A stretch of 64,000 nucleotides of DNA from Candidatus Kapaibacterium sp. (GCA_004292595.1 RDXM01000106.1:4946-68945), one strand, 5' to 3'; positions 1,543 to 40,933 are shown, counted from the first letter of the stretch. Notes: generated from the letters alone by a model not told the origin. Numbers and translations are program-made.

Positions 1543-3246
1543 TTAAAAATTCACTGCCAAACCCAGTCTGCCAAACGCACCGATATTCACAATGCCGCCA
1601 TCTATCGTCAAACCTGGAATTGCGCCTGGGTCGATTGGGGGTTCTGTGCCGTTCCGTCCCGTATAATGCCCGCCCGCGCTCAGTTCTAAAAACACCCCAA
1701 CTTGACGAGTGAAATTATACTGAAAACCCCCCAGCAAACCAACATACAAGCGCACGGGAGTAAAATTACTCAGCATCGTACCAATCGGCAGCCCCACGTA
1801 GGCATCAAGAGTTTGATTGCGCACAAAATGGTACGCTGGGCGCACGGTGAGAAAATGATAATCTGTGTAGCGAATCCTCGTTGTGGTGGTGGTTGTGGTC
1901 TGAATGCCTGTTCCTGTGGTTATTCGCGTTGTGTCGTTGATGTTTGGTCCTGGAAAATAGCCATACATCAAGCCTAAAGAAAACTGCGGCGATACATAAA
2001 AATCGCCTGAAATACTAAGCATTGGGAAAGAAACATCGCCCGAACCGCCTGTAAATCCTGTGGGAAAAGTACTCGGTGCGATAATTGTTGCCGGGATACC
2101 CATAATTGGACGATTCAGCGCGAAGCCCGCACCAATGCCCACGCGCAGCGTAAAGATGGGCAAGGCAGTGTCTTTGACAACAGCACGTGCGGTATCGCGT
2201 TTTATGGCTGGTGGCGGCGGAACAGGTTTTTTATCCGTTTGATAGGGTGCAAATTCGCCTTGCGGCTTGTCGCCCGTGCTTCGTTGTGGCATCGTGCGGG
2301 CAATTCCGCCCGGAGGATTGCTGCTGGTGGTCGGTGCTGTGGTCGTGCCTACGGGAGAGCGGCTCGCACTCGCTCCAGCACTGGGTTGTACGTTGTCCAA
2401 ATTTTTAATGCGCTCTTCCAATGCCGCCAAGCGTGCCGTCAGCTGTGCATTCAAAGCGCGTTCTTGCTCAAGGGGCGATAGTGATGGTGTACGCGACGGC
2501 GCATTCGAGCTAGCCGGCGGCGCAGAACGTGGCGGTAAATCACGCGGACGTAAGTTCTGCGGCGGTACTGACGAAGTTGGTGGCGCAGTGCGGCGTGTGT
2601 TTGGATTGAGACTGGTGCTGGTATTGGCGTTCAGTGCTGCATCGCCGCGTGAGGCGGGCATGGGCTGAAGGCGCGAGGCATCATCGCTCATCATGTTATC
2701 CAAGAGCATTTGCGTTGAATTGCGACTGGACTGCGGCGAGCGCGATTTGATGATGTCGTTAAAAATGTCCGAAGCCCGTTGCAATGCCGCGAGTGCTGCT
2801 TGGCGGTCGCCCATATCGCGGTAAACTAATCCCAAGTATTCGTAGCCTGTTGCTTGCCAATAGCGGTTGCCAGAGCGCGTTGCTCGCTCAATTCCCTCAT
2901 TGATATTTTTCTGCGCAAGGTCGTAATTACGTGCCTCGCGGTAGGTATTACCCATTTTGAGCAAACGCATTGTTTCCTCATTGTTTCCGCGCTCGCTTGC
3001 TCGCTCGTTTGCGCGGTCGCTTGTTTGCGCTGGTGGTCGTGCCGTCGCAGAGCGCGTCGGAACTGGTCTCGCGGGACGGCTCTGCGCCCATAGTTCCGAA
3101 GAAGCACAACAGCACACAAGCGCAAATGCGAGTGCGAGTGCAAAAATATTGAGACAACTCGGCACAAAGCGCAGGCGTGACAACGAGGATTCATGCGCAA
3201 AGCGTGGCGCAAAAAAGCGCGGCGAGGAAAAAGATATGAACTTCAT
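1543..3246 (-). CDS. secreted protein with a TPR region, coiled coil, Pro/Ser/Thr-rich linker and a C-terminal outer-membrane beta-barrel
   Basis: The N-terminus carries a signal-like hydrophobic segment. A TPR-like block follows (YREARNYDLAQ...YWQATGYEYLGLVYRDMGDRQAALAAL), then a leucine-zipper coiled coil and a long low-complexity P/S/T linker. The C-terminus has alternating-hydrophobic beta strands ending ...GLAVNF with a terminal aromatic residue. It is a paralog of the ORF at 3534-4835. Confidence 0.55.
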   Translation of the reverse strand: MKFISFSSPRFFAPRFAHESSLSRLRFVPSCLNIFALALAFALVCCCASSELWAQSRPARPVPTRSATARPPAQTSDRANERASERGNNEETMRLLKMGNTYREARNYDLAQKNINEGIERATRSGNRYWQATGYEYLGLVYRDMGDRQAALAALQRASDIFNDIIKSRSPQSSRNSTQMLLDNMMSDDASRLQPMPASRGDAALNANTSTSLNPNTRRTAPPTSSVPPQNLRPRDLPPRSAPPASSNAPSRTPSLSPLEQERALNAQLTARLAALEERIKNLDNVQPSAGASASRSPVGTTTAPTTSSNPPGGIARTMPQRSTGDKPQGEFAPYQTDKKPVPPPPAIKRDTARAVVKDTALPIFTLRVGIGAGFALNRPIMGIPATIIAPSTFPTGFTGGSGDVSFPMLSISGDFYVSPQFSLGLMYGYFPGPNINDTTRITTGTGIQTTTTTTTRIRYTDYHFLTVRPAYHFVRNQTLDAYVGLPIGTMLSNFTPVRLYVGLLGGFQYNFTRQVGVFLELSAGGHYTGRNGTEPPIDPGAIPGLTIDGGIVNIGAFGRLGLAVNF

Positions 3247-3306
3247 AGATGCTTGAATTCAAGAGGTTTGGTCGAATTGAACTACAAGAAAGTAGGCAAA
3301 AAAATA

Positions 3307-3501
3307 GGTAACTGGTCAGGTCTCAGCCATGAAGAGGGGACGCAGATGAAGATGATTGGATTGATGAAGATGATAGTGATAAAAAAAGAAGAGCGTCAAT
3401 GCAGACTTCATCCGTTGTTGATATTTTCTGCATTTTCGTCATCTTCATCCATTCAATCATCTTCATCTGCGTCCAAAAAAAATCACGACCTGACCAGTTA
3501 C
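3307..3501. repeat. 195-bp near-perfect palindrome with terminal inverted repeats GGTAACTGGTCAGGTC (family 2, MITE-like)
   Basis: GGTAACTGGTCAGGTC at 3307-3322 is the reverse complement of GACCTGACCAGTTAC at 3487-3501. The inner arm ggacgcagatgaagatgattggattgatgaagatga (3338-3373) pairs with the arm at 3438-3474 with 2 mismatches. The element sits in the gap between two paralogous genes. Confidence 0.55.
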
Positions 3502-3533: not shown

Positions 3534-4835
3534 TTACTTCTTGCCAATCAAGAAACAGAAATACGCGCCTTCGTTGTCGCAATCGTACATCGTTACCAAG
3601 AATGTATGTGTGCCGCCATATTCATTGCTCCAGCCTATTTTCGCTAATGCCTCGCGGGTATTGGGCTTGCGAGAGAGCGTTTCGATGGGCTGTGCGCTGG
3701 TATCGGTTGATTGCGTTTGAGTCTGATTTTGCCCTGACGTTTGCGAGGATGTATTTTGCTGCTGATTTTGCTGCTGATTTTGCTGCCCGTTGTTGGACTG
3801 ATTGACCGTAGAGCTAGAATCAGTGCGCTGTCCAGCACTTGCTTCGTTGGGATTGAAGCGAATATCCTTGCGCTCAAGCACTACGCCTTGCGAATTGATG
3901 ATGCGCACGTCCAAATCACGCGCCTTCTGCGTACAGGCATCGCCCAAAATGAGGTATTGTCCAATCGGCACGTTGATTTCAATTTTCGTGGATTCGCCGC
4001 GCTTCAAGTAGCCAACAATCACCGTCCCGTCCACTCGCGCATTGCCGCCTTGCAAGCGGACTGCGCGGTCATTGATACCAAAATCTAAAGGCGCAAAACC
4101 GTTCATCCAGAGCGTACTTTCGCGGTATTTTGCGGTCGCTTCTAGCTCACGCTTACACTCGCTCATATCCAGCGACGACGAGCTTTTGAGCGACATGACG
4201 CTGCTGGATTCCAGTTGTTTTATGCGTCCTTCCAATTCTGAAATTTTTGATTGCAGCATCCGATTTTCATTTTGCAAGCGCGTGTTTTCGTCCTGCAAGC
4301 GTGTGTCGGTGGCGCTGACGGGCGGCGGTGTTGCCATTGCCATTGAGTTCTGCGCAGACATGGACGGCGGCGGCGCGGATGCACCCTGCTCTACATCAGC
4401 AATCACGGCGCGGAGAGCGTCATCGCTGCCTTGTCCGTTGCGCATCGTTACAATGCGGTCGTAGAGCGAAGCCGCTGTACGCAAGTATTCAAGCGCGAGC
4501 TGACGGTCGCCCATATCGCGGTAGAGCAAGCCCAAATACTCATATCCGACAGCCTCCCAGTACGTGCCGCTTCGTCCGCCCCGCACCATATCTATCCCAC
4601 GCTTGATGTAGTATTGCGCGAGGTCGTAGTTGCGAGCTTCGCGGTAGCTATTGCCCAATTTCAAATACCGAACACCCAGATTTTCTGCATTCACTCCGCC
4701 CGTGCGGCGATAGGTGGTCGGGGCATCGTTTGGCGGTGCATCTTGCCCCCAAAGCGTCCTTGGCTGGAAAGCAAGCACCGAAGCGGCAAGTGCCAATCCC
4801 GTACAAAGCGTTGATACTGTGTGCAACATTTTCAT
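3534..4835 (-). CDS. secreted TPR/coiled-coil protein, paralog of 1543-3246, with a different C-terminal domain and a Q/N-rich tail
   Basis: It begins with a signal peptide (MKMLHTVSTLCTGLALAASVLA). It shares with its neighbour the block LGNSYREARNYDLAQYYIKRGID...YWEAVGYEYLGLLYRDMGDRQLALEYL, followed by the coiled coil ENTRLQNENRMLQSKISELEGRIKQLE. The C-terminal domain is unrelated to the neighbour's. An NQQQNQQQN low-complexity stretch is present. Confidence 0.55.
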   Translation of the reverse strand: MKMLHTVSTLCTGLALAASVLAFQPRTLWGQDAPPNDAPTTYRRTGGVNAENLGVRYLKLGNSYREARNYDLAQYYIKRGIDMVRGGRSGTYWEAVGYEYLGLLYRDMGDRQLALEYLRTAASLYDRIVTMRNGQGSDDALRAVIADVEQGASAPPPSMSAQNSMAMATPPPVSATDTRLQDENTRLQNENRMLQSKISELEGRIKQLESSSVMSLKSSSSLDMSECKRELEATAKYRESTLWMNGFAPLDFGINDRAVRLQGGNARVDGTVIVGYLKRGESTKIEINVPIGQYLILGDACTQKARDLDVRIINSQGVVLERKDIRFNPNEASAGQRTDSSSTVNQSNNGQQNQQQNQQQNTSSQTSGQNQTQTQSTDTSAQPIETLSRKPNTREALAKIGWSNEYGGTHTFLVTMYDCDNEGAYFCFLIGKK

Positions 4836-5017
4836 AGACCTTTTCTCTGGAAACCACCCTGCTTTAGCGGGTGGAGGAAAGAGCAGCGAAATAGGTGCGG
4901 TTTTGCGGAGTCACACGGCTGCCGTGGCGGAGCAAACGCGCAGTTTTTCGCTTTCTTCTGTTAGTGATTGAATTAGTTGGTTTATTTTCAACATTTTTAA
5001 CTTGGTGTTTCGCTATC

Positions 5018-6304
5018 TCACACCGCATACCGATAGCCATCGCAACGCTGGACAATCTTGCAATATTTGTAGCTCACGCCTTGAACAGTGCCGTTTTTAT
5101 CCGTAATATTAAAACTACCTGACGACCGCACCGCCACTTTGCCCTCGTGTGTTCCACGCTTTGCACCGCTTGGAACTACCGCTTTGACCATATCGCCTGT
5201 TTGAAATCCTTTGACACTTTTTGCGCCCTTCGCACTCGTGCGTGGAAAGCCGTATTTGTCCACACGGCACATTTGGCGATTGCCCCAGCCTTGCGCTGTA
5301 ATGGTGAGCGGGCGCATTCCTGCGTCTATTCGTACTGCTTCGCCGCTTGCACCAACACACGCCGCATCTATCCAATGCGCTTTTGCGTACCCTTGGCGGT
5401 TGCGATTGTACTTTGTTCGCCCGCCACTACCAAGCTCAACGGGCAAACCAAATAATTGCAAACGATTATACAATTCCCATCGTGGTGCGTTCACCGCCGC
5501 CGTGTCTTTGAGCGGCATTCGTGCTTGCTTGTGCAGATGTTCGTGTCCAAATTCTTCCGCCGTTTGTGTGCCTTTGCGCTCGTTGCATTTGCGACAAGCA
5601 AGCGTCAGGTTTGACACGCGATTTGAGCCGCCACGTGCTTTCGGAATGATATGCTCTACCTCAAGCGGAACATCCTTTGCCGTGCAGTATGCGCACCTGC
5701 GCTGCCATTTTTCCAGCAAATATTCCCGCACTTCGTAGCCTTGTAACGCGCCTTGCTGGTATTCTACACCTGAAATTTCCGCATCCTGCATCTTCTGTGT
5801 GTCGAAGCGCACGAGTTCTTGACTCATGCTTTTTACGGGCGACAACCGCGTGAGGCGTTGCACCCACGTTGTTATGTTTGCCAAACGGCTTTCGAGCGAT
5901 GGCGGCAGCCAAGCACCACGATTACCGTGGCGTGGGCGTGTTCGGTTCAAAAAACGTGGTTTGCGATAGCGTGTGTGGCGATTGCGCCGTCCGCGTCGCA
6001 CACCGCGCCGTTGCTCCAATGCTTCGTGGACGCGCTGCCCTCGGTGTGTGAGTTCGGCAGCAAACACTACCTCGCCCGTCGTTTCCTCTACCAGAGCAAT
6101 ACCTGTAGTTTTGCTTCCTGGGTCGAGTTTTGCCCGCAACGCTCGTGGCGTTGCATCGGGATAAGAACGCTTCAAAATAATCGTAAACGGAAACCTCCGA
6201 TAGACTGCCGCTTTGCCTTCGCCAAGCAGCATACGCGCTCGCTTGGGGCGACACGGTGCAAGAGGTCGTTTGTCCGTATCTAGCACAAAAACTTTTTGCA
6301 TCAA
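5018..6304 (-). CDS. iscB: IscB, an OMEGA-class RNA-guided endonuclease of the RuvC/HNH type that is ancestral to Cas9
   Basis: The 428-aa protein shows the full IscB domain order. The N-terminal PLMP-like domain reads VFVLDTDKRPLAPCRPKRARMLL. RuvC-I is KLDPGSKTTGIALV. An Arg-rich bridge helix follows (RRGVRRGRRNRHTRYRKPRF). RuvC-II is EISGVEYQQGALQGYEVREYL. The HNH domain is CAYC...EVEHIIPKARGGSNRVSNLTLACRKCNERKG. RuvC-III is AKAHWIDAACVG. A C-terminal TAM-interacting-like beta domain completes the protein. Confidence 0.85.
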   Translation of the reverse strand: MMQKVFVLDTDKRPLAPCRPKRARMLLGEGKAAVYRRFPFTIILKRSYPDATPRALRAKLDPGSKTTGIALVEETTGEVVFAAELTHRGQRVHEALEQRRGVRRGRRNRHTRYRKPRFLNRTRPRHGNRGAWLPPSLESRLANITTWVQRLTRLSPVKSMSQELVRFDTQKMQDAEISGVEYQQGALQGYEVREYLLEKWQRRCAYCTAKDVPLEVEHIIPKARGGSNRVSNLTLACRKCNERKGTQTAEEFGHEHLHKQARMPLKDTAAVNAPRWELYNRLQLFGLPVELGSGGRTKYNRNRQGYAKAHWIDAACVGASGEAVRIDAGMRPLTITAQGWGNRQMCRVDKYGFPRTSAKGAKSVKGFQTGDMVKAVVPSGAKRGTHEGKVAVRSSGSFNITDKNGTVQGVSYKYCKIVQRCDGYRYAV

Positions 6305-6560
6305 AAATACTCCTTAAAGAGTGTCGCGGCTTGCACCGCGTAATGGTCGCCTCGACAATGTTTTAACGGCTTTTTGCACTCAACACACTGGCTTACACCG
6401 TCCGCCTGTTTAATGTTGAGCGACAGAGCGTAAGACTGGCAAGCATCCTACGGTGTCCTGACCGAAAAAACGTAGATTACTCTCTACAAGAGCAATCTGA
6501 GTCTGGTCAATGTCGGCTTGTATTTCCTACAAGCCACCCGTCTTTAGCCGGTGGTGATTG
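6305..6560 (-). ncRNA. candidate omega-RNA (IscB guide RNA scaffold) in the iscB 5' leader
   Basis: About 250 nt of non-coding sequence lie between the iscB start codon and the left-end hairpin. The region is rich in local stems, for example gtcGCGGCttgcaCCGCgtaatggtcgcctcGAC and the terminal CCACCC/GGTGG hairpin. The position matches where IscB omega-RNAs are known to be encoded. The guide segment would lie at or beyond about 6555. Confidence 0.4.
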
Positions 6561-6836
6561 ACAATGTGCATCTCCGAAAACTGTGAAAAAGTATGTGTAA
6601 TTGATTGCGTGTAGAAATGATACATGATGCACTTTAGAGGATTCAAACATTGTGCCAATCGCTGCAAAGGCTCGTAAAATCTGGATAAAAAAAGCACAAA
6701 AAAAACGCACAAAAAAAAACGCACAAAAAAGGACGTACAAAAAAAGCTGGACAAAGAGCCTCGAAAAACCTCTTTGATAACCACAACTTTTTTGTACGTC
6801 CTGAATGTAATAATTTTCTGTTTCGTTTTCGCTTTT

Positions 6837-7436
6837 TTAGTGTGTTTCGCCTTCAATCGAAGCAAGCGTATGATTTTTTGCTCGCGATTCAGCTGCCATG
6901 CGCTCTTTATAGGAAAGCACTTTCGTTTGAAGTGCTTCATCGCTCGCGCCCAGAATCTGCACTGCCAGCAAGCCCGCATTCTTGCCCGCACCAATCGCTA
7001 CCGTCGCAACAGGTACGCCGCCGGGCATCTGCACAATCGAGAGCAGCGAATCTACGCCCGCAAGCGTTTTCGTGAGAATCGGTACGCCAATCACAGGCAA
7101 CGGCGAATACGCAGCCACCATACCCGGCAAATGTGCCGCGCCACCCGCACCCGCAACAATCACCCGAATCCCGCGTGAATGTGCATTTGTAGCGTAATCA
7201 GCCATATCCGCAGGTGTGCGGTGCGCCGAAATAACGCGCATTTCGTAGGGAATACCAAAATCGCGGCAAACCTGCGCCGCTTCTTGCATCGTGGGCAAAT
7301 CGGAATCGCTTCCCATGATAATTCCAACAAGTGACGAGGGCAATTCTTCGGAATTGCGCTCTACAAGCGGCTCTGCGACTTGTATTGCCAGCGAAAGAGG
7401 AACGGGTTTGTTCATACGGTCTTCAAAATTTTTCAT
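6837..7436 (-). CDS. purE: N5-carboxyaminoimidazole ribonucleotide mutase
   Basis: [39 protein letters not shown]...[18 protein letters not shown]...[10 protein letters not shown]. The first 35 aa appear to be an N-terminal extension, so the true start may be an internal codon. Confidence 0.85.
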
Positions 7437-24200: not shown

Positions 24201-24305
24201 TCGTTGACCGCCTACGTGCCGCTTGTTTCCTACATTCCTGGGCGGAATTGGGTGCTTGGCTACGACGGTGTGCGCATTGGCGTAAGTACGACGATTCCGC
24301 GATAA
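21204..24305 (+). CDS. secreted M1-family zinc metallopeptidase with a long C-terminal extension, possibly an outer-membrane beta-barrel
   Basis: The signal peptide MLRFATFCFFFATINILQAQQ begins at the ATG at 21204. A GDGGMEYPNLVMI motif is present, and the gluzincin signature HEAIHQWFYGMAANNETKHAWMDEG fits HExxH-x18-E. The C-terminal 450 aa show alternating-hydrophobic beta patterns. Confidence 0.7.
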   Translation: MLRFATFCFFFATINILQAQQPSGFPADMESRLQQERLAGLVHTIHVTVNDDDYTFKGTSRVEFTNNTPDTLRQIFFHAHFNAFQPNSLTAKRVAAIGPNRLKPETFANLKPSEIGKLEILPGTSTVAGIGAAFTVERLGTIIRLDLSKPLLPGERTTLEFAFEGQVPVQVRRSGRNNAQGVRYSMAQWFPKLCQYDQHGWQNNQFVLREFYGVWGKYDVKITLPAKYVVGASGDLQNPLEMGYGYEFDRDSVKLPAPDSEKPQGTKTWHFVAFPVHDFAWVADADYIHRVVKMPTSSAISPNMTFHILTKPKYDAVWKNATDWLPRIFHFLGEKYLPYPYKQFTCTQAGDGGMEYPNLVMIRSSDYNGTLGTVAHEAIHQWFYGMAANNETKHAWMDEGITDYLTDRIMSEEFNIDEQTHSTWLENALIPRRKDALESNRAFLRVYALGYDEPLSIPHDRFNEDMTAVMVYRKGSAWMRQFEYSFGKNKMDELLRNYQGLWRFRHPYPPDFEKIASETFGQRMDEVFDTFLRGTELPDYTLQSLRSEPTSDGKYKNTLQLTKRERAHVPLNLYASDGAGSVAKIHIPSDMLNAPNKDTSRLAPWFWAAGDYTAEFITPRPITSVRLDTAGNLLRNDLTKNQIQAGGLFPAMPEVKLGFMTRFDEAQPLDYYGVSVRPSVWYDPLGGLQLGVRADGVGGYNTPKLTAGAYYNLGNQRFDWQLGYSQMLGGAGASGTAQVEARFFSMDGVTAFTNRILTDVRPVRYARENLQISSIYTDIWNFRDPSHYGGELFIRNEQFIRFGTVAEQRWKTGFTQMEANFAITLSGNVSVRPQIRFEWAENLVSGNIAVLSARLFGNLSLGTPFATRYSLQSGTAIERFENIPSRFTRFAAYSLGLPVFTPGGAGFVRSTPELMEGIAAVNLFLGNRTLRQSFGLDLIGVDALKPGIWLAAGLAAAEFGRNSGSLLNTFHFDSGISLSINLADTRSAGRYLFMFQDEVSLTAYVPLVSYIPGRNWVLGYDGVRIGVSTTIPR

Positions 24306-24376
24306 CGCACCGTTGGAAAAACAAGGTTCTTTCAGTAGATTTGAAATACGATATTTCCCACTATTTTTTGTATCAA

Positions 24377-24718
24377 ATGCTTCCAAAACGTGGTGAAATC
24401 TGGCTTGTCGAGTTCGACCCTCAGCGTGGTGCGGAGATTGCGAAAAAACGCCCTGCTGTTGTCTTGTCCGTAGATAGCATCGGGCATTTACCATTGCGTA
24501 TGGTCGTTCCATGCACCGATTGGAAACCTGAGTTTGAGTCGTATTCGTGGTTTATCGCTCTTCAAGGCACAGCGAGTGGACTTCGTAAGCCAAGCGGCGC
24601 GGATGCTTTTCAATGCAAAAGTTTTTCACTTGACCGTTTTGTGAAAAAACTTGGTTCTGTTACACCGAGCGAACTGAATGAAATTGCGCTTGCCGTTGGC
24701 TTGTGTATTGGGCTTTGA
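24377..24718 (+). CDS. MazF/PemK-family endoribonuclease toxin
   Basis: KRGEIWLVEFDPQRGAEIAKKRPAVVLSVDSIGHLPLRMVVPCT is the PemK/MazF signature. The upstream extension of the listed ORF (24248) overlaps the peptidase gene and is unlikely to be real. Confidence 0.7.
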   Translation: MLPKRGEIWLVEFDPQRGAEIAKKRPAVVLSVDSIGHLPLRMVVPCTDWKPEFESYSWFIALQGTASGLRKPSGADAFQCKSFSLDRFVKKLGSVTPSELNEIALAVGLCIGL

Positions 24719-24747
24719 TTCAATTCTCTTCTTATTTTTGTACCATT

Positions 24748-25086
24748 ATGGCTACTCTGCATTCCTCCTCAAAAAGTCTTGCACAACAGACAAAAGATGC
24801 TGTGCCAATAACCATTCGCCTTATGCCAGAGGAGAAGGCGGCATTCCGCAAACTTGCTCAAGCAAAAGGACTTTCCTATAGGCGACTGCTCATGGAGCTT
24901 GTTCATACTGCGCAAGGCACCGATGCGCAACCGCACTCAGGAGTACCACGACCATCGGAACTCTATAAATTGTCTCGACAAGAACGTGATTCTATCTTGC
25001 AAAAACAGAGTATTGCGGCTGCGAGTTTGTATGCACAGCATCCTGAACTTATTGCCGATGGCAGTGATGACGTGATTGAGTATTAG
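24748..25086 (+). CDS. ribbon-helix-helix (CopG/ParD-like) protein, putative antitoxin, with a C-terminal extension
   Basis: Beginning at MATLHSS..., the sequence ITIRLMPEEKAAFRKLAQAKGLSYRRLLMELV matches RHH motifs. It lies immediately downstream of the mazF-like gene. Confidence 0.45.
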   Translation: MATLHSSSKSLAQQTKDAVPITIRLMPEEKAAFRKLAQAKGLSYRRLLMELVHTAQGTDAQPHSGVPRPSELYKLSRQERDSILQKQSIAAASLYAQHPELIADGSDDVIEY

Positions 25087-39417: not shown

Positions 39418-39526
39418 AAAGCATTGTCAATATGTTTGACTCGCGCAATTTTTCCAGTTGGAAGCCGCTTCGGAAGGAGTTTCCAACTTTTTTCTTTTCT
39501 TCCCTTCAGAATATTCACACCTTTCC

Positions 39527-40933
39527 ATGAAAAAATCTCCTCGTCCCGCACCCAAAACGGGCATTATTTCTCGTAGTGGCGGCAAAACATCCTTCCGCAA
39601 ACTCGACCCCAATGCGCCTCCCAAAAGCCGCACCAAACCTACTCGCGCTGGCGAATCCCCTCGCTCCCGCACCGCTCGACCCGATACAGACGACGAAACA
39701 AAGCCCGCTCGCAAAACCAGTGCGCCCGCACGAAAGCTCTATGGTGATAAAAAATCTGAAGGCAAGAAATTCGGGGACAAGAAGTTTGGTGAGAAGAAGT
39801 TTGGCGAGAAAAAATTTGACGACAAAAAATCTGCTGAGAAGAAGTTTGGTGAAAAGAAATTTGAGGATAAAAAATTTGAGGATAAAAAATTTGAGGATAA
39901 AAAATTTGGTGAGAAGAAGTTTGATGATAAGAAGCTCGGCGAGAAGAAGTTTGGCGAAAAGAAATTCGGTGAGAAACGATTTGAAGGGAGGAAGTTTGAA
40001 GGTAAGAGGGTTGAAAATGAACACTTTAGCACGAAAAAATCAGATCGAACAAGCCACAAAGCCGTTTCAGAAGCTGCCGCGTCCGCCAAATCCAGTCCGC
40101 AAGCGGGCAAGGGTGGGAAGCGACCACCAAGCACGAAAGCCAGCAACACTGCGCTTCTGCGCTTGAATAAATACATTGCCGATGCAGGTATTTGTTCGCG
40201 GCGGCAGGCAGATGAGTACATTGAGCAAGGCAGGGTCAAGGTCAATGGCAAATTGGTAACCGAACAGGGAATGAAGGTGCATCTTGCTGACCTCGTAACG
40301 GTAAACGGCGAGCCAATAAATGCGGAAAAGCATCTAACATACGTCGTACTGAACAAGCCAAAAGATTATATCACAACGACCAGCGACGAAAAAGGGCGCA
40401 AAACCGTGATGGAGCTTATTCCTTTGAAACAACGTATTTATCCCATTGGTAGGCTCGACCGTCATACGACGGGCGTTCTTTTGCTGACCAACGACGGGGA
40501 TTTAGCGCACCGTCTCATGCACCCAAGTTATGAAGTATCAAGGATTTATCGTGTGTATATTGACAAACGCCTCACGCAAAACGATATGCGCAATATTTCC
40601 AAAGGTGTGAAAGTAGAGGACGAAAACGGTGATTTTTATATTTCTGGCGAGTGTAACATTGCCATTGACCCCGAAGACCCACGCGCCGTTACGGTGGAAC
40701 TTGCTGAGGGAAAAAACCGTGAGGTACGGCGTATTTTTGCGGCTCTGGGCTATGAAGTGGAAAAGCTCGACCGCAAGGCATATGCAGGTATTTCCTCGCG
40801 TGGGCTGGGACGCGGCGAGTATCGCCATCTTTCGCCACTGGAAGTACGGGCTTTGGAGCAGTTAGTCAAACTCGACCACCGCTTAGAAAACGCCACGACT
40901 GCTGCGAAAACCCGCACAAAAGCTCGGCGGTGA
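39527..40933 (+). CDS. rluB: 23S rRNA pseudouridine synthase (RluB/RsuA family) with a long Lys-rich N-terminal tandem-repeat extension
   Basis: An S4 domain (LLRLNKYIADAGICSRRQADEYIEQGRVKVNGK) and the catalytic motif IYPIGRLDRHTTGVLLLTNDGDLAHRLMHP. The N-terminal 200 aa consist of (E/D)KKFG pentapeptide repeats. The start at 39527 (MKKSPRP...) is preferred over 39458. Confidence 0.8.
   Translation: MKKSPRPAPKTGIISRSGGKTSFRKLDPNAPPKSRTKPTRAGESPRSRTARPDTDDETKPARKTSAPARKLYGDKKSEGKKFGDKKFGEKKFGEKKFDDKKSAEKKFGEKKFEDKKFEDKKFEDKKFGEKKFDDKKLGEKKFGEKKFGEKRFEGRKFEGKRVENEHFSTKKSDRTSHKAVSEAAASAKSSPQAGKGGKRPPSTKASNTALLRLNKYIADAGICSRRQADEYIEQGRVKVNGKLVTEQGMKVHLADLVTVNGEPINAEKHLTYVVLNKPKDYITTTSDEKGRKTVMELIPLKQRIYPIGRLDRHTTGVLLLTNDGDLAHRLMHPSYEVSRIYRVYIDKRLTQNDMRNISKGVKVEDENGDFYISGECNIAIDPEDPRAVTVELAEGKNREVRRIFAALGYEVEKLDRKAYAGISSRGLGRGEYRHLSPLEVRALEQLVKLDHRLENATTAAKTRTKARR
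39745..40015 (+). repeat. about 17 tandem copies of a 15-bp unit (GAGAAGAAGTTTGGT-like) encoding (E/D)KKFG repeats inside rluB
   Basis: Direct repeats are visible in the DNA (gagaagaagtttggcgagaaaaaatttgacgacaaaaaa...). They are translated as KKFGDKKFGEKKFGEKKFDDKK... The antisense ORF at 39515-40024 is an artefact of this repeat. Confidence 0.7.

Follow-up and report, generated by a model that had tools for sequence, protein, structure and literature searches.

The 64,000-nt window, by which we mean the whole stretch of DNA that was analysed (Candidatus Kapaibacterium sp., GCA_004292595.1, RDXM01000106.1:4946-68945), carries on its minus strand a 1727 bp mobile element (4836..6562) of the non-autonomous IS200/IS605 type (ISC), which comprises a predicted omega RNA and an iscB gene, is devoid of tnpA, and by its insertion separates, to the base, the ribosome-binding site (GGAG) of a TPR-repeat gene from the start codon (ATG). 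A non-autonomous IS200/IS605-family element with IscB and omega RNA, inserted at a start codon and operating by a mechanism of the published type, would explain the locus as a whole, and we assign this reading a probability of about 0.88. The element itself, though intact, is an ordinary representative of a well-known family of small mobile elements that carry the RNA-guided nuclease IscB, the ancestor of Cas9, together with its guide RNA.

Comparison with independent copies in other contexts revealed that likeness begins at 6562 and ceases at ∼4831, the shared sequence opening at GTCAATCACC (window 6562) and closing at ...AAAGTCT (window 4836), with ATGAA next each time. In the orthologous loci L082, L083 and L084, which are free of the element, window position 6563 is joined straight to 4835. 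These empty sites read ...TTCGGAGATGCACATT|ATGAAAATG..., that is ...CACATT|ATGAAAATG around the motif, and the TPR orthologue loci ...cacagttttcggagatgcacatt|ATGAAAATG..., with zero bases gained or lost at the junction, over which the rebuilt window site and the orthologues could be aligned free of gaps. Since the flanks of these three loci join directly, the insertion occurred without target duplication, 5′ of ATGAA as read on the iscB strand, corresponding to 3′ of TTCAT on its complement; seen from the plus strand, the element thus resembles a canonical IS200/IS605 insertion 3′ of TTCAT. The original prediction had placed an element at 4850-6560; the element is there, but its exact ends are 4836 and 6562.

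Downstream of iscB lies a non-coding end of 182 nt (4836..5017, minus strand; the canonical left end), the last ∼50 nt of which are kept in L025 and ∼110 nt in L028, the flanks being unlike. The transposon/target-adjacent motif ATGAA (4831..4835, minus strand; TTCAT on the plus strand) is host DNA, its ATG being the TPR start codon. It abuts the element end in the window, L025, L028 and L029-L034, and removal of the element in silico gave ...CC|ATGA in L028, where an antitoxin stop and a toxin start overlap, and ...TTA|ATG (TAATG) in L029, where a parA stop and a parB start overlap. As the rebuilt empty sites give back canonical gene overlaps, ATGAA must belong to the host and not to the element.

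Related copies, mobility and end hairpins

Exact-protein look-ups identified independent copies, with IscB proteins 78-89% identical to that of the window, in other contexts: flanked by DUF2281 antitoxin and PIN toxin genes (L028; 89% identical IscB, 85% DNA identity), between parA and parB (L029-L035) and before an IstB-like gene (L025). A second sample (L024) contained the same insertion, 100% identical. The best relatives in a scan of a genome collection were 63-65% identical, and a metagenome scan with the protein yielded relatives at ≤63% identity. In L026/L027 (78% identical IscB, 1609-3330), the copy has a VapE-like gene as its neighbour, which may point to a phage or mobile context. 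The left flank of this copy consists of a (GT)n run, which would make its guide low in complexity, and the hairpin-plus-ATGAA pattern was not found at its downstream end. Close copies that end at the same motif exist in related genomes (L025, L028 and L029-L034), the window holding a single copy.

The absence of tnpA from the element, also part of that prediction, was borne out, and a Pfam scan of 10 ORFs of 106-211 aa in the window revealed no tnpA among them. As ∼98.5% of iscB genes are without a nearby tnpA and only ∼1.5% are near one (Meers et al., bioRxiv 10.1101/2023.03.14.532601), such an absence is the norm. A fixed remnant that is no longer mobile, having landed once without a transposase and carrying an IscB and an omega RNA that are idle or drifting, would be in keeping with the single copy in 64 kb, with the failure to find tnpA in the parts scanned and with the identical insertion in the second sample. 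However, all catalytic and zinc-binding residues of the protein are kept, the score of the omega RNA is far over its threshold, both end hairpins and the flanking motif are intact, and 89% identical IscB copies occupy other sites in related genomes. Because close copies at other sites indicate that the lineage moved recently, we regard a dead remnant as rather unlikely, though still worth bearing in mind, and favour the intact element with its predicted IscB system. Nothing was found in support of the suggestion that the element is a driver of local genome rearrangement.

Same-strand subterminal hairpins, the lack of terminal inverted repeats and the lack of target duplication place the element in the IS200/IS605 family. 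Two similar hairpins on one strand had been proposed at 4854-4874 and 6534-6554, and the hairpin pattern indeed has exactly two matches in the 64 kb, compared with 0.06 expected from shuffles; on the gene strand these read CCACCGgctaaagaCGGGTGG (6554-6534) and CCACCCgctaaagcaGGGTGG (4874-4854) and form a 24-nt direct repeat of 83% identity, 1680 nt apart. Their interpretation as structures of the element ends also holds, as they lie 8 and 18 nt, respectively, inside the ends fixed by the empty sites. The hairpin at the omega-RNA end (6534..6554, minus strand; the canonical right end) is the first stem-loop of the predicted omega RNA and corresponds to positions 9-30 of the HEARO model; it therefore belongs to the RNA in addition to marking an end, and only its description as an end structure alone had to be given up. 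The iscB-distal hairpin (4854..4874, minus strand) is situated 18 nt from the TPR ATG at 4835, just as claimed, but its designation as the right-end hairpin was mistaken, the TPR side being the left end in the convention of Meers et al.

With its GC-rich 6-bp stem straight after the gene, followed by TTT, the iscB-distal hairpin might be taken for a mere transcription terminator of iscB that resembles the upstream hairpin by chance. Yet three T residues only stand behind the stem, and a terminator scan gave no call. A terminator would also leave unexplained why this hairpin keeps a constant distance of 17-19 nt from the element boundary in every copy, and why both hairpins of one element resemble each other and change as a pair in the distant elements L013, L036, L039, L041 and L074; chance likeness, moreover, is at odds with the low expected frequency of the pattern. 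A terminator reading is thus very improbable, and we treat both hairpins as the ends of the element.

The omega RNA, its guide and the TPR gene

The original prediction of an RNA of roughly 200 nt upstream of iscB, making the locus a candidate OMEGA system, agrees with the putative omega RNA scaffold detected at 6340..6562 (minus strand), which matched HEARO (RF02033), the Rfam family of the IscB omega RNA, over the full model (1-211) with 145.2 bits against a gathering score of 83 (E = 2e-31). HEARO was the only Rfam family above threshold in the window and occurred as a single copy in 64 kb; other matches in the region, to miRNA families (E 0.03-1), were far under their gathering scores and were dismissed. 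A HEARO match was present upstream of iscB in all 17 related loci tested, and an alignment of 13 related loci showed compensatory changes in 32 of the 45 predicted pairs. A further covarying hairpin at ∼6326-6339, past the end of the Rfam model, probably belongs to the omega RNA too. Position 1 of the HEARO model coincides with the element boundary at 6562, and in L028, L029, L034 and L026 it coincides with the point where independent copies diverge.

Directly 5′ of HEARO position 1, and hence in host DNA outside the element, lies the putative guide segment of the omega RNA, TTCGGAGATGCACATT (6563..6578, minus strand), the 16-nt length of which we assume from characterised IscBs. The empty site of L082 has the identical sequence and that of L083/L084 a version with 1 base changed, with ATGAAA next, and no other exact match to the guide was found within the window. 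As predicted from these sequences, the guide can match the element-free allele only.

The TPR-repeat gene (3534..4835, minus strand; 433 aa) has an intact ORF, 83% and 71% identical to orthologues without the element, but its 5′ untranslated region has been replaced by the insertion. In the empty alleles, GGAG is found 9 nt upstream of the TPR ATG; in the window it lies 1.7 kb away at 6572-6575, inside the guide TTCGGAGATGCACATT, and the present TPR leader consists of the last bases of the element, AGAGAAAAGGTCT. As the TPR gene starts with the ATG of the motif, the insertion severed the gene from its own GGAG site and promoter, so that the proposed rewiring of the TPR promoter holds in a sharper form: the start codon was split from its own ribosome-binding site. 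Two sigma-70-like sites on the gene strand upstream of the guide (6658-6631 and 6646-6617) are weak evidence of a promoter there, since the scan used an E. coli-type consensus that may not suit the host phylum. Most likely, expression of the guide and omega RNA, of iscB and, by read-through, of the TPR gene itself is now under the control of what used to be the TPR upstream region.

This upstream region has several features of its own. The purE-TPR intergenic region contains ∼5 tandem copies of a 14-nt unit (AAAAAACGCACAAA on the plus strand, T-rich on the gene strand; 6684-6767) just upstream of the element, together with a perfect 15-nt inverted repeat (6730-6744 / 6788-6802). The 275-nt left flank (6563-6837), which holds these repeats, can be aligned with the sequence preceding the TPR orthologue in L082. 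The TPR gene is one of two in tandem (1543-3246 and 3534-4835) with a common N-terminal segment, LKxGNxYREARNYDLAQ...YEYLGLxYRDMGDRQ, and such a tandem pair is conserved in L082 and L083.

The element lies precisely at the 5′ end of a host gene, with which it is probably co-transcribed, and this would also suit a domesticated regulator, i.e. an RNA-guided DNA binder that controls the neighbouring TPR gene independently of any nuclease activity. Nuclease-dead relatives of the sister family TnpB act as repressors and provide a precedent. The active-site residues of the window protein are intact, however, the guide fits the empty allele, no second exact match to it occurring in the window, and the transposon ends have been kept, all of which makes a purely regulatory role highly improbable and leaves a nuclease guided to the element-free allele as the preferred reading.

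The IscB protein

The 428-aa ORF described on the minus strand (5018-6304) is present when read from an in-frame TTG at 6304. An ATG at 6301 sits 8 nt past AAGGAG (6310-6315) and is also the start of the public protein TAE28183.1 / P0001; in exact-protein look-ups, the 427-aa form starting with this ATG was on record and the exact 428-aa TTG-start form was not. Because of the AAGGAG spacing and the start of the public protein, the ATG at 6301 is the likelier start, and iscB was taken as 5018..6301 (minus strand; 427 aa), its assignment being based on NCBIfam, Pfam, PDB and residue alignment.

The sequence motifs by which the protein had been recognized as an IscB are in place: LDPGSKTTG, the RRXRR region, two CxxC pairs, EVEHIIP...N and HWIDA were found, and the N-terminal PLMP motif occurs as the variant PLAP (residues 13-16). 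Profile searches bore out the identification, with 437 bits for the NCBIfam IscB equivalog NF040563 against a cut-off of 175 and 225 bits for Pfam RRXRR over the full model (residues 5-185), and Pfam HNH was confined to residues 204-254. The key residues are D60, E162, H309 and D312 of the RuvC domain and H217 and N240 of the HNH domain, together with the zinc cysteines C203, C206, C236 and C239. When aligned with OgeuIscB, the N-terminus corresponds to residues 3-116 of that protein, and D60, E162, H217, H309 and D312 fall on its RuvC/HNH catalytic positions. No loss of catalytic residues, which would have spoken against an IscB, was seen, and in 38 homologues the key residues and the four zinc cysteines proved to be invariant or at least 90% conserved.

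A sequence search of the PDB matched only IscB, IsrB and small Cas9 chains. An AlphaFold model of the protein (pLDDT 77, pTM 0.70) found its best fold match in IscB-omegaRNA-DNA complexes (8csz, E = 5e-24). The last ∼55 residues are beta-rich in the model, with six modelled strands in residues 371-426 (pLDDT ∼80-89), in agreement with the C-terminal beta domain of the original prediction; the fold comparison was made on the whole chain. As judged from its sequence, the window protein is an IscB with intact nuclease active sites, and guide- and motif-dependent cleavage of double-stranded DNA is its predicted activity.

More than 8000 database proteins match at E ≤ 1e-30, and public annotation is lagging, with 'HNH endonuclease' at NCBI and '5-methylcytosine-specific restriction endonuclease McrA' for relatives at JGI, even though 'RNA-guided endonuclease IscB' is already the name of a sibling of TAE28183.1 in its 90% cluster. 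The first two of these public names would make the protein an HNH or McrA-type enzyme of restriction or homing that acts alone, without an RNA guide; this has a practically negligible probability, given that HNH accounts for residues 204-254 alone, that the full length fits the IscB equivalog model and solved IscB-RNA-DNA complexes, and that a HEARO RNA immediately precedes the gene here and in all relatives checked.

Proposed mechanism, known systems and the start-codon context

In the mechanism that we propose, transcription would have its start external to the element; the former TPR promoter, within the 274-bp intergenic region, is the most likely one. From there the transcript would extend over the guide (the final 16 nt of host DNA), the scaffold of the omega RNA, iscB and probably the TPR gene, in that order. 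The complex of IscB and omega RNA would recognise only the element-free allele, TTCGGAGATGCACATT followed by ATGAA, which would arise on excision by a TnpA supplied in trans; repair of the cut empty allele from an occupied sister copy would then keep the element or let it spread. A move to new sites would need a Y1 TnpA encoded elsewhere.

This proposal draws on the work of Meers et al. (bioRxiv 10.1101/2023.03.14.532601). There, the right end delimits the RNA upstream of iscB, with the guide falling beyond the element; TTCAT beside the left end serves both GstIscB and its TnpA; and cleavage after TnpA-mediated excision restores the element by recombination. The same authors found iscB elements to be co-oriented with the upstream gene, since the guide needs transcription from outside. 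The GstIscB element of Geobacillus stearothermophilus, ISGst5, accordingly resembles the window element in being a non-autonomous IS200/IS605 element with an omega RNA that is upstream of iscB and bounded by the right end, with a guide outside the element, with TTCAT by the left end (ATGAA on the iscB strand) and in co-orientation with the upstream gene. It differs in that the window host, a member of the Kapaibacteria, belongs to another phylum, that the motif in the window is the start codon of the next gene, and that the window system is known from sequence.

OgeuIscB and its omega RNA (PDB 7utn, 7xht, 8csz) share the domain order and catalytic residues of the window protein, and the fold match to the window model had a TM score of 0.55 (E = 5e-24). 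The sequence match, however, was 82-84 bits and the identity in the fold alignment ∼17-21%, and the window protein is shorter (427 versus 496 aa). The motif published for OgeuIscB is NWRRNA (PMC12660989), compared with ATGAA at the window element. The match to HEARO RF02033 (Weinberg et al., 2009) was full-length and well over the gathering score, with no material difference.

IS608 and ISDra2 likewise have subterminal hairpins on one strand at unequal distances from the ends, generate no duplication and insert 3′ of a short T-rich motif (TTAC and TTGAT, respectively; TTCAT in the window). The hairpin-to-end distances of IS608, ∼19 and 10 nt, are close to the 18 and 8 nt of the window. Unlike these elements, which encode TnpA and TnpB, the window element is without tnpA, carries iscB as cargo on the opposite strand and has an inward-reading guide RNA at its right end. 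Type II CRISPR-Cas9 and Cas9d have the RuvC-HNH nuclease core in common with the window IscB, and their models matched the HNH region only, with 26-46 bits against cut-offs of 100-375. An association with CRISPR was rejected, no array-like repeats being present in the window.

The iscB-distal end could be placed at 12 independent sites, at eight of them by comparing independent copies with one another (that of the window, three close ones and four paralogues from a single Chloroflexota MAG) and in L036, L039, L074 and L042 by the hairpin plus 16-19 nt only; L005, L006, L007 and others, where a downstream search for the hairpin repeat did not reveal a clear second end, do not enter the count. 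All 12 sites abut ATGA, and at 10 of the 12 that ATG opens a co-oriented ORF of 92-494 aa (L001-L004, L025, L028, L029, L036, L039, L042 and L074 are among the loci). Genes opened in this way include parB, a PIN toxin gene and an MBL-fold hydrolase-like gene. Of all ATGAA sites in the window, 31% have an ORF of this kind, which gives P = 3e-4, and 15% look like ORF starts, which gives P = 3e-7, both values being rough as the null was drawn from one genome.

The simplest reading of this pattern is that ATGAA(A) is a very common start context, that insertions within genes are purged and that the guide requires co-orientation behind a transcribed gene. Insertion at ATGA(A) of co-oriented gene starts might instead be a selected strategy by which elements embed themselves in operons and 5′ leaders, a possibility to which we lend tentative credence while leaning against it. 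Host transcription would in that case supply the guide and omega RNA, the last ∼18 nt of the element would take over as leader of the downstream gene, whose former ribosome-binding region would be the guide; the choice of motif would then be linked to host gene architecture. A statement of the start-codon pattern was not found in the papers that could be searched. In the original HEARO description of 2009, Weinberg and colleagues are reported to have noted insertion just upstream of ATGA or GTGA.

The locus is a further member of a well-characterised family, for which a curated equivalog model and many solved structures exist, and it leaves the view of how IscB systems work unchanged. It adds one fully resolved natural IscB locus, with exact ends, guide, motif and empty alleles, from an under-sampled phylum, and offers a clean example of an IscB element replacing the 5′ leader of a host gene. 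The weak public annotation as 'HNH endonuclease' is corrected, and the locus, which encodes a candidate compact nuclease with an ATGAA motif, could be used directly as a substrate for tests.

Two features elsewhere in the window may be recorded. An ORF for a MazF/PemK-type toxin (24248-24718; Pfam PF02452, E = 4e-19) adjoins a small ORF (24703-25086) that had no match in the Pfam scan. Within the ORF at 39458-40933, a tandem repeat of 15 nt × 14 (also 60 nt × 3.8) at 39746-39975 encodes lysine-rich KKFGE-like repeats.
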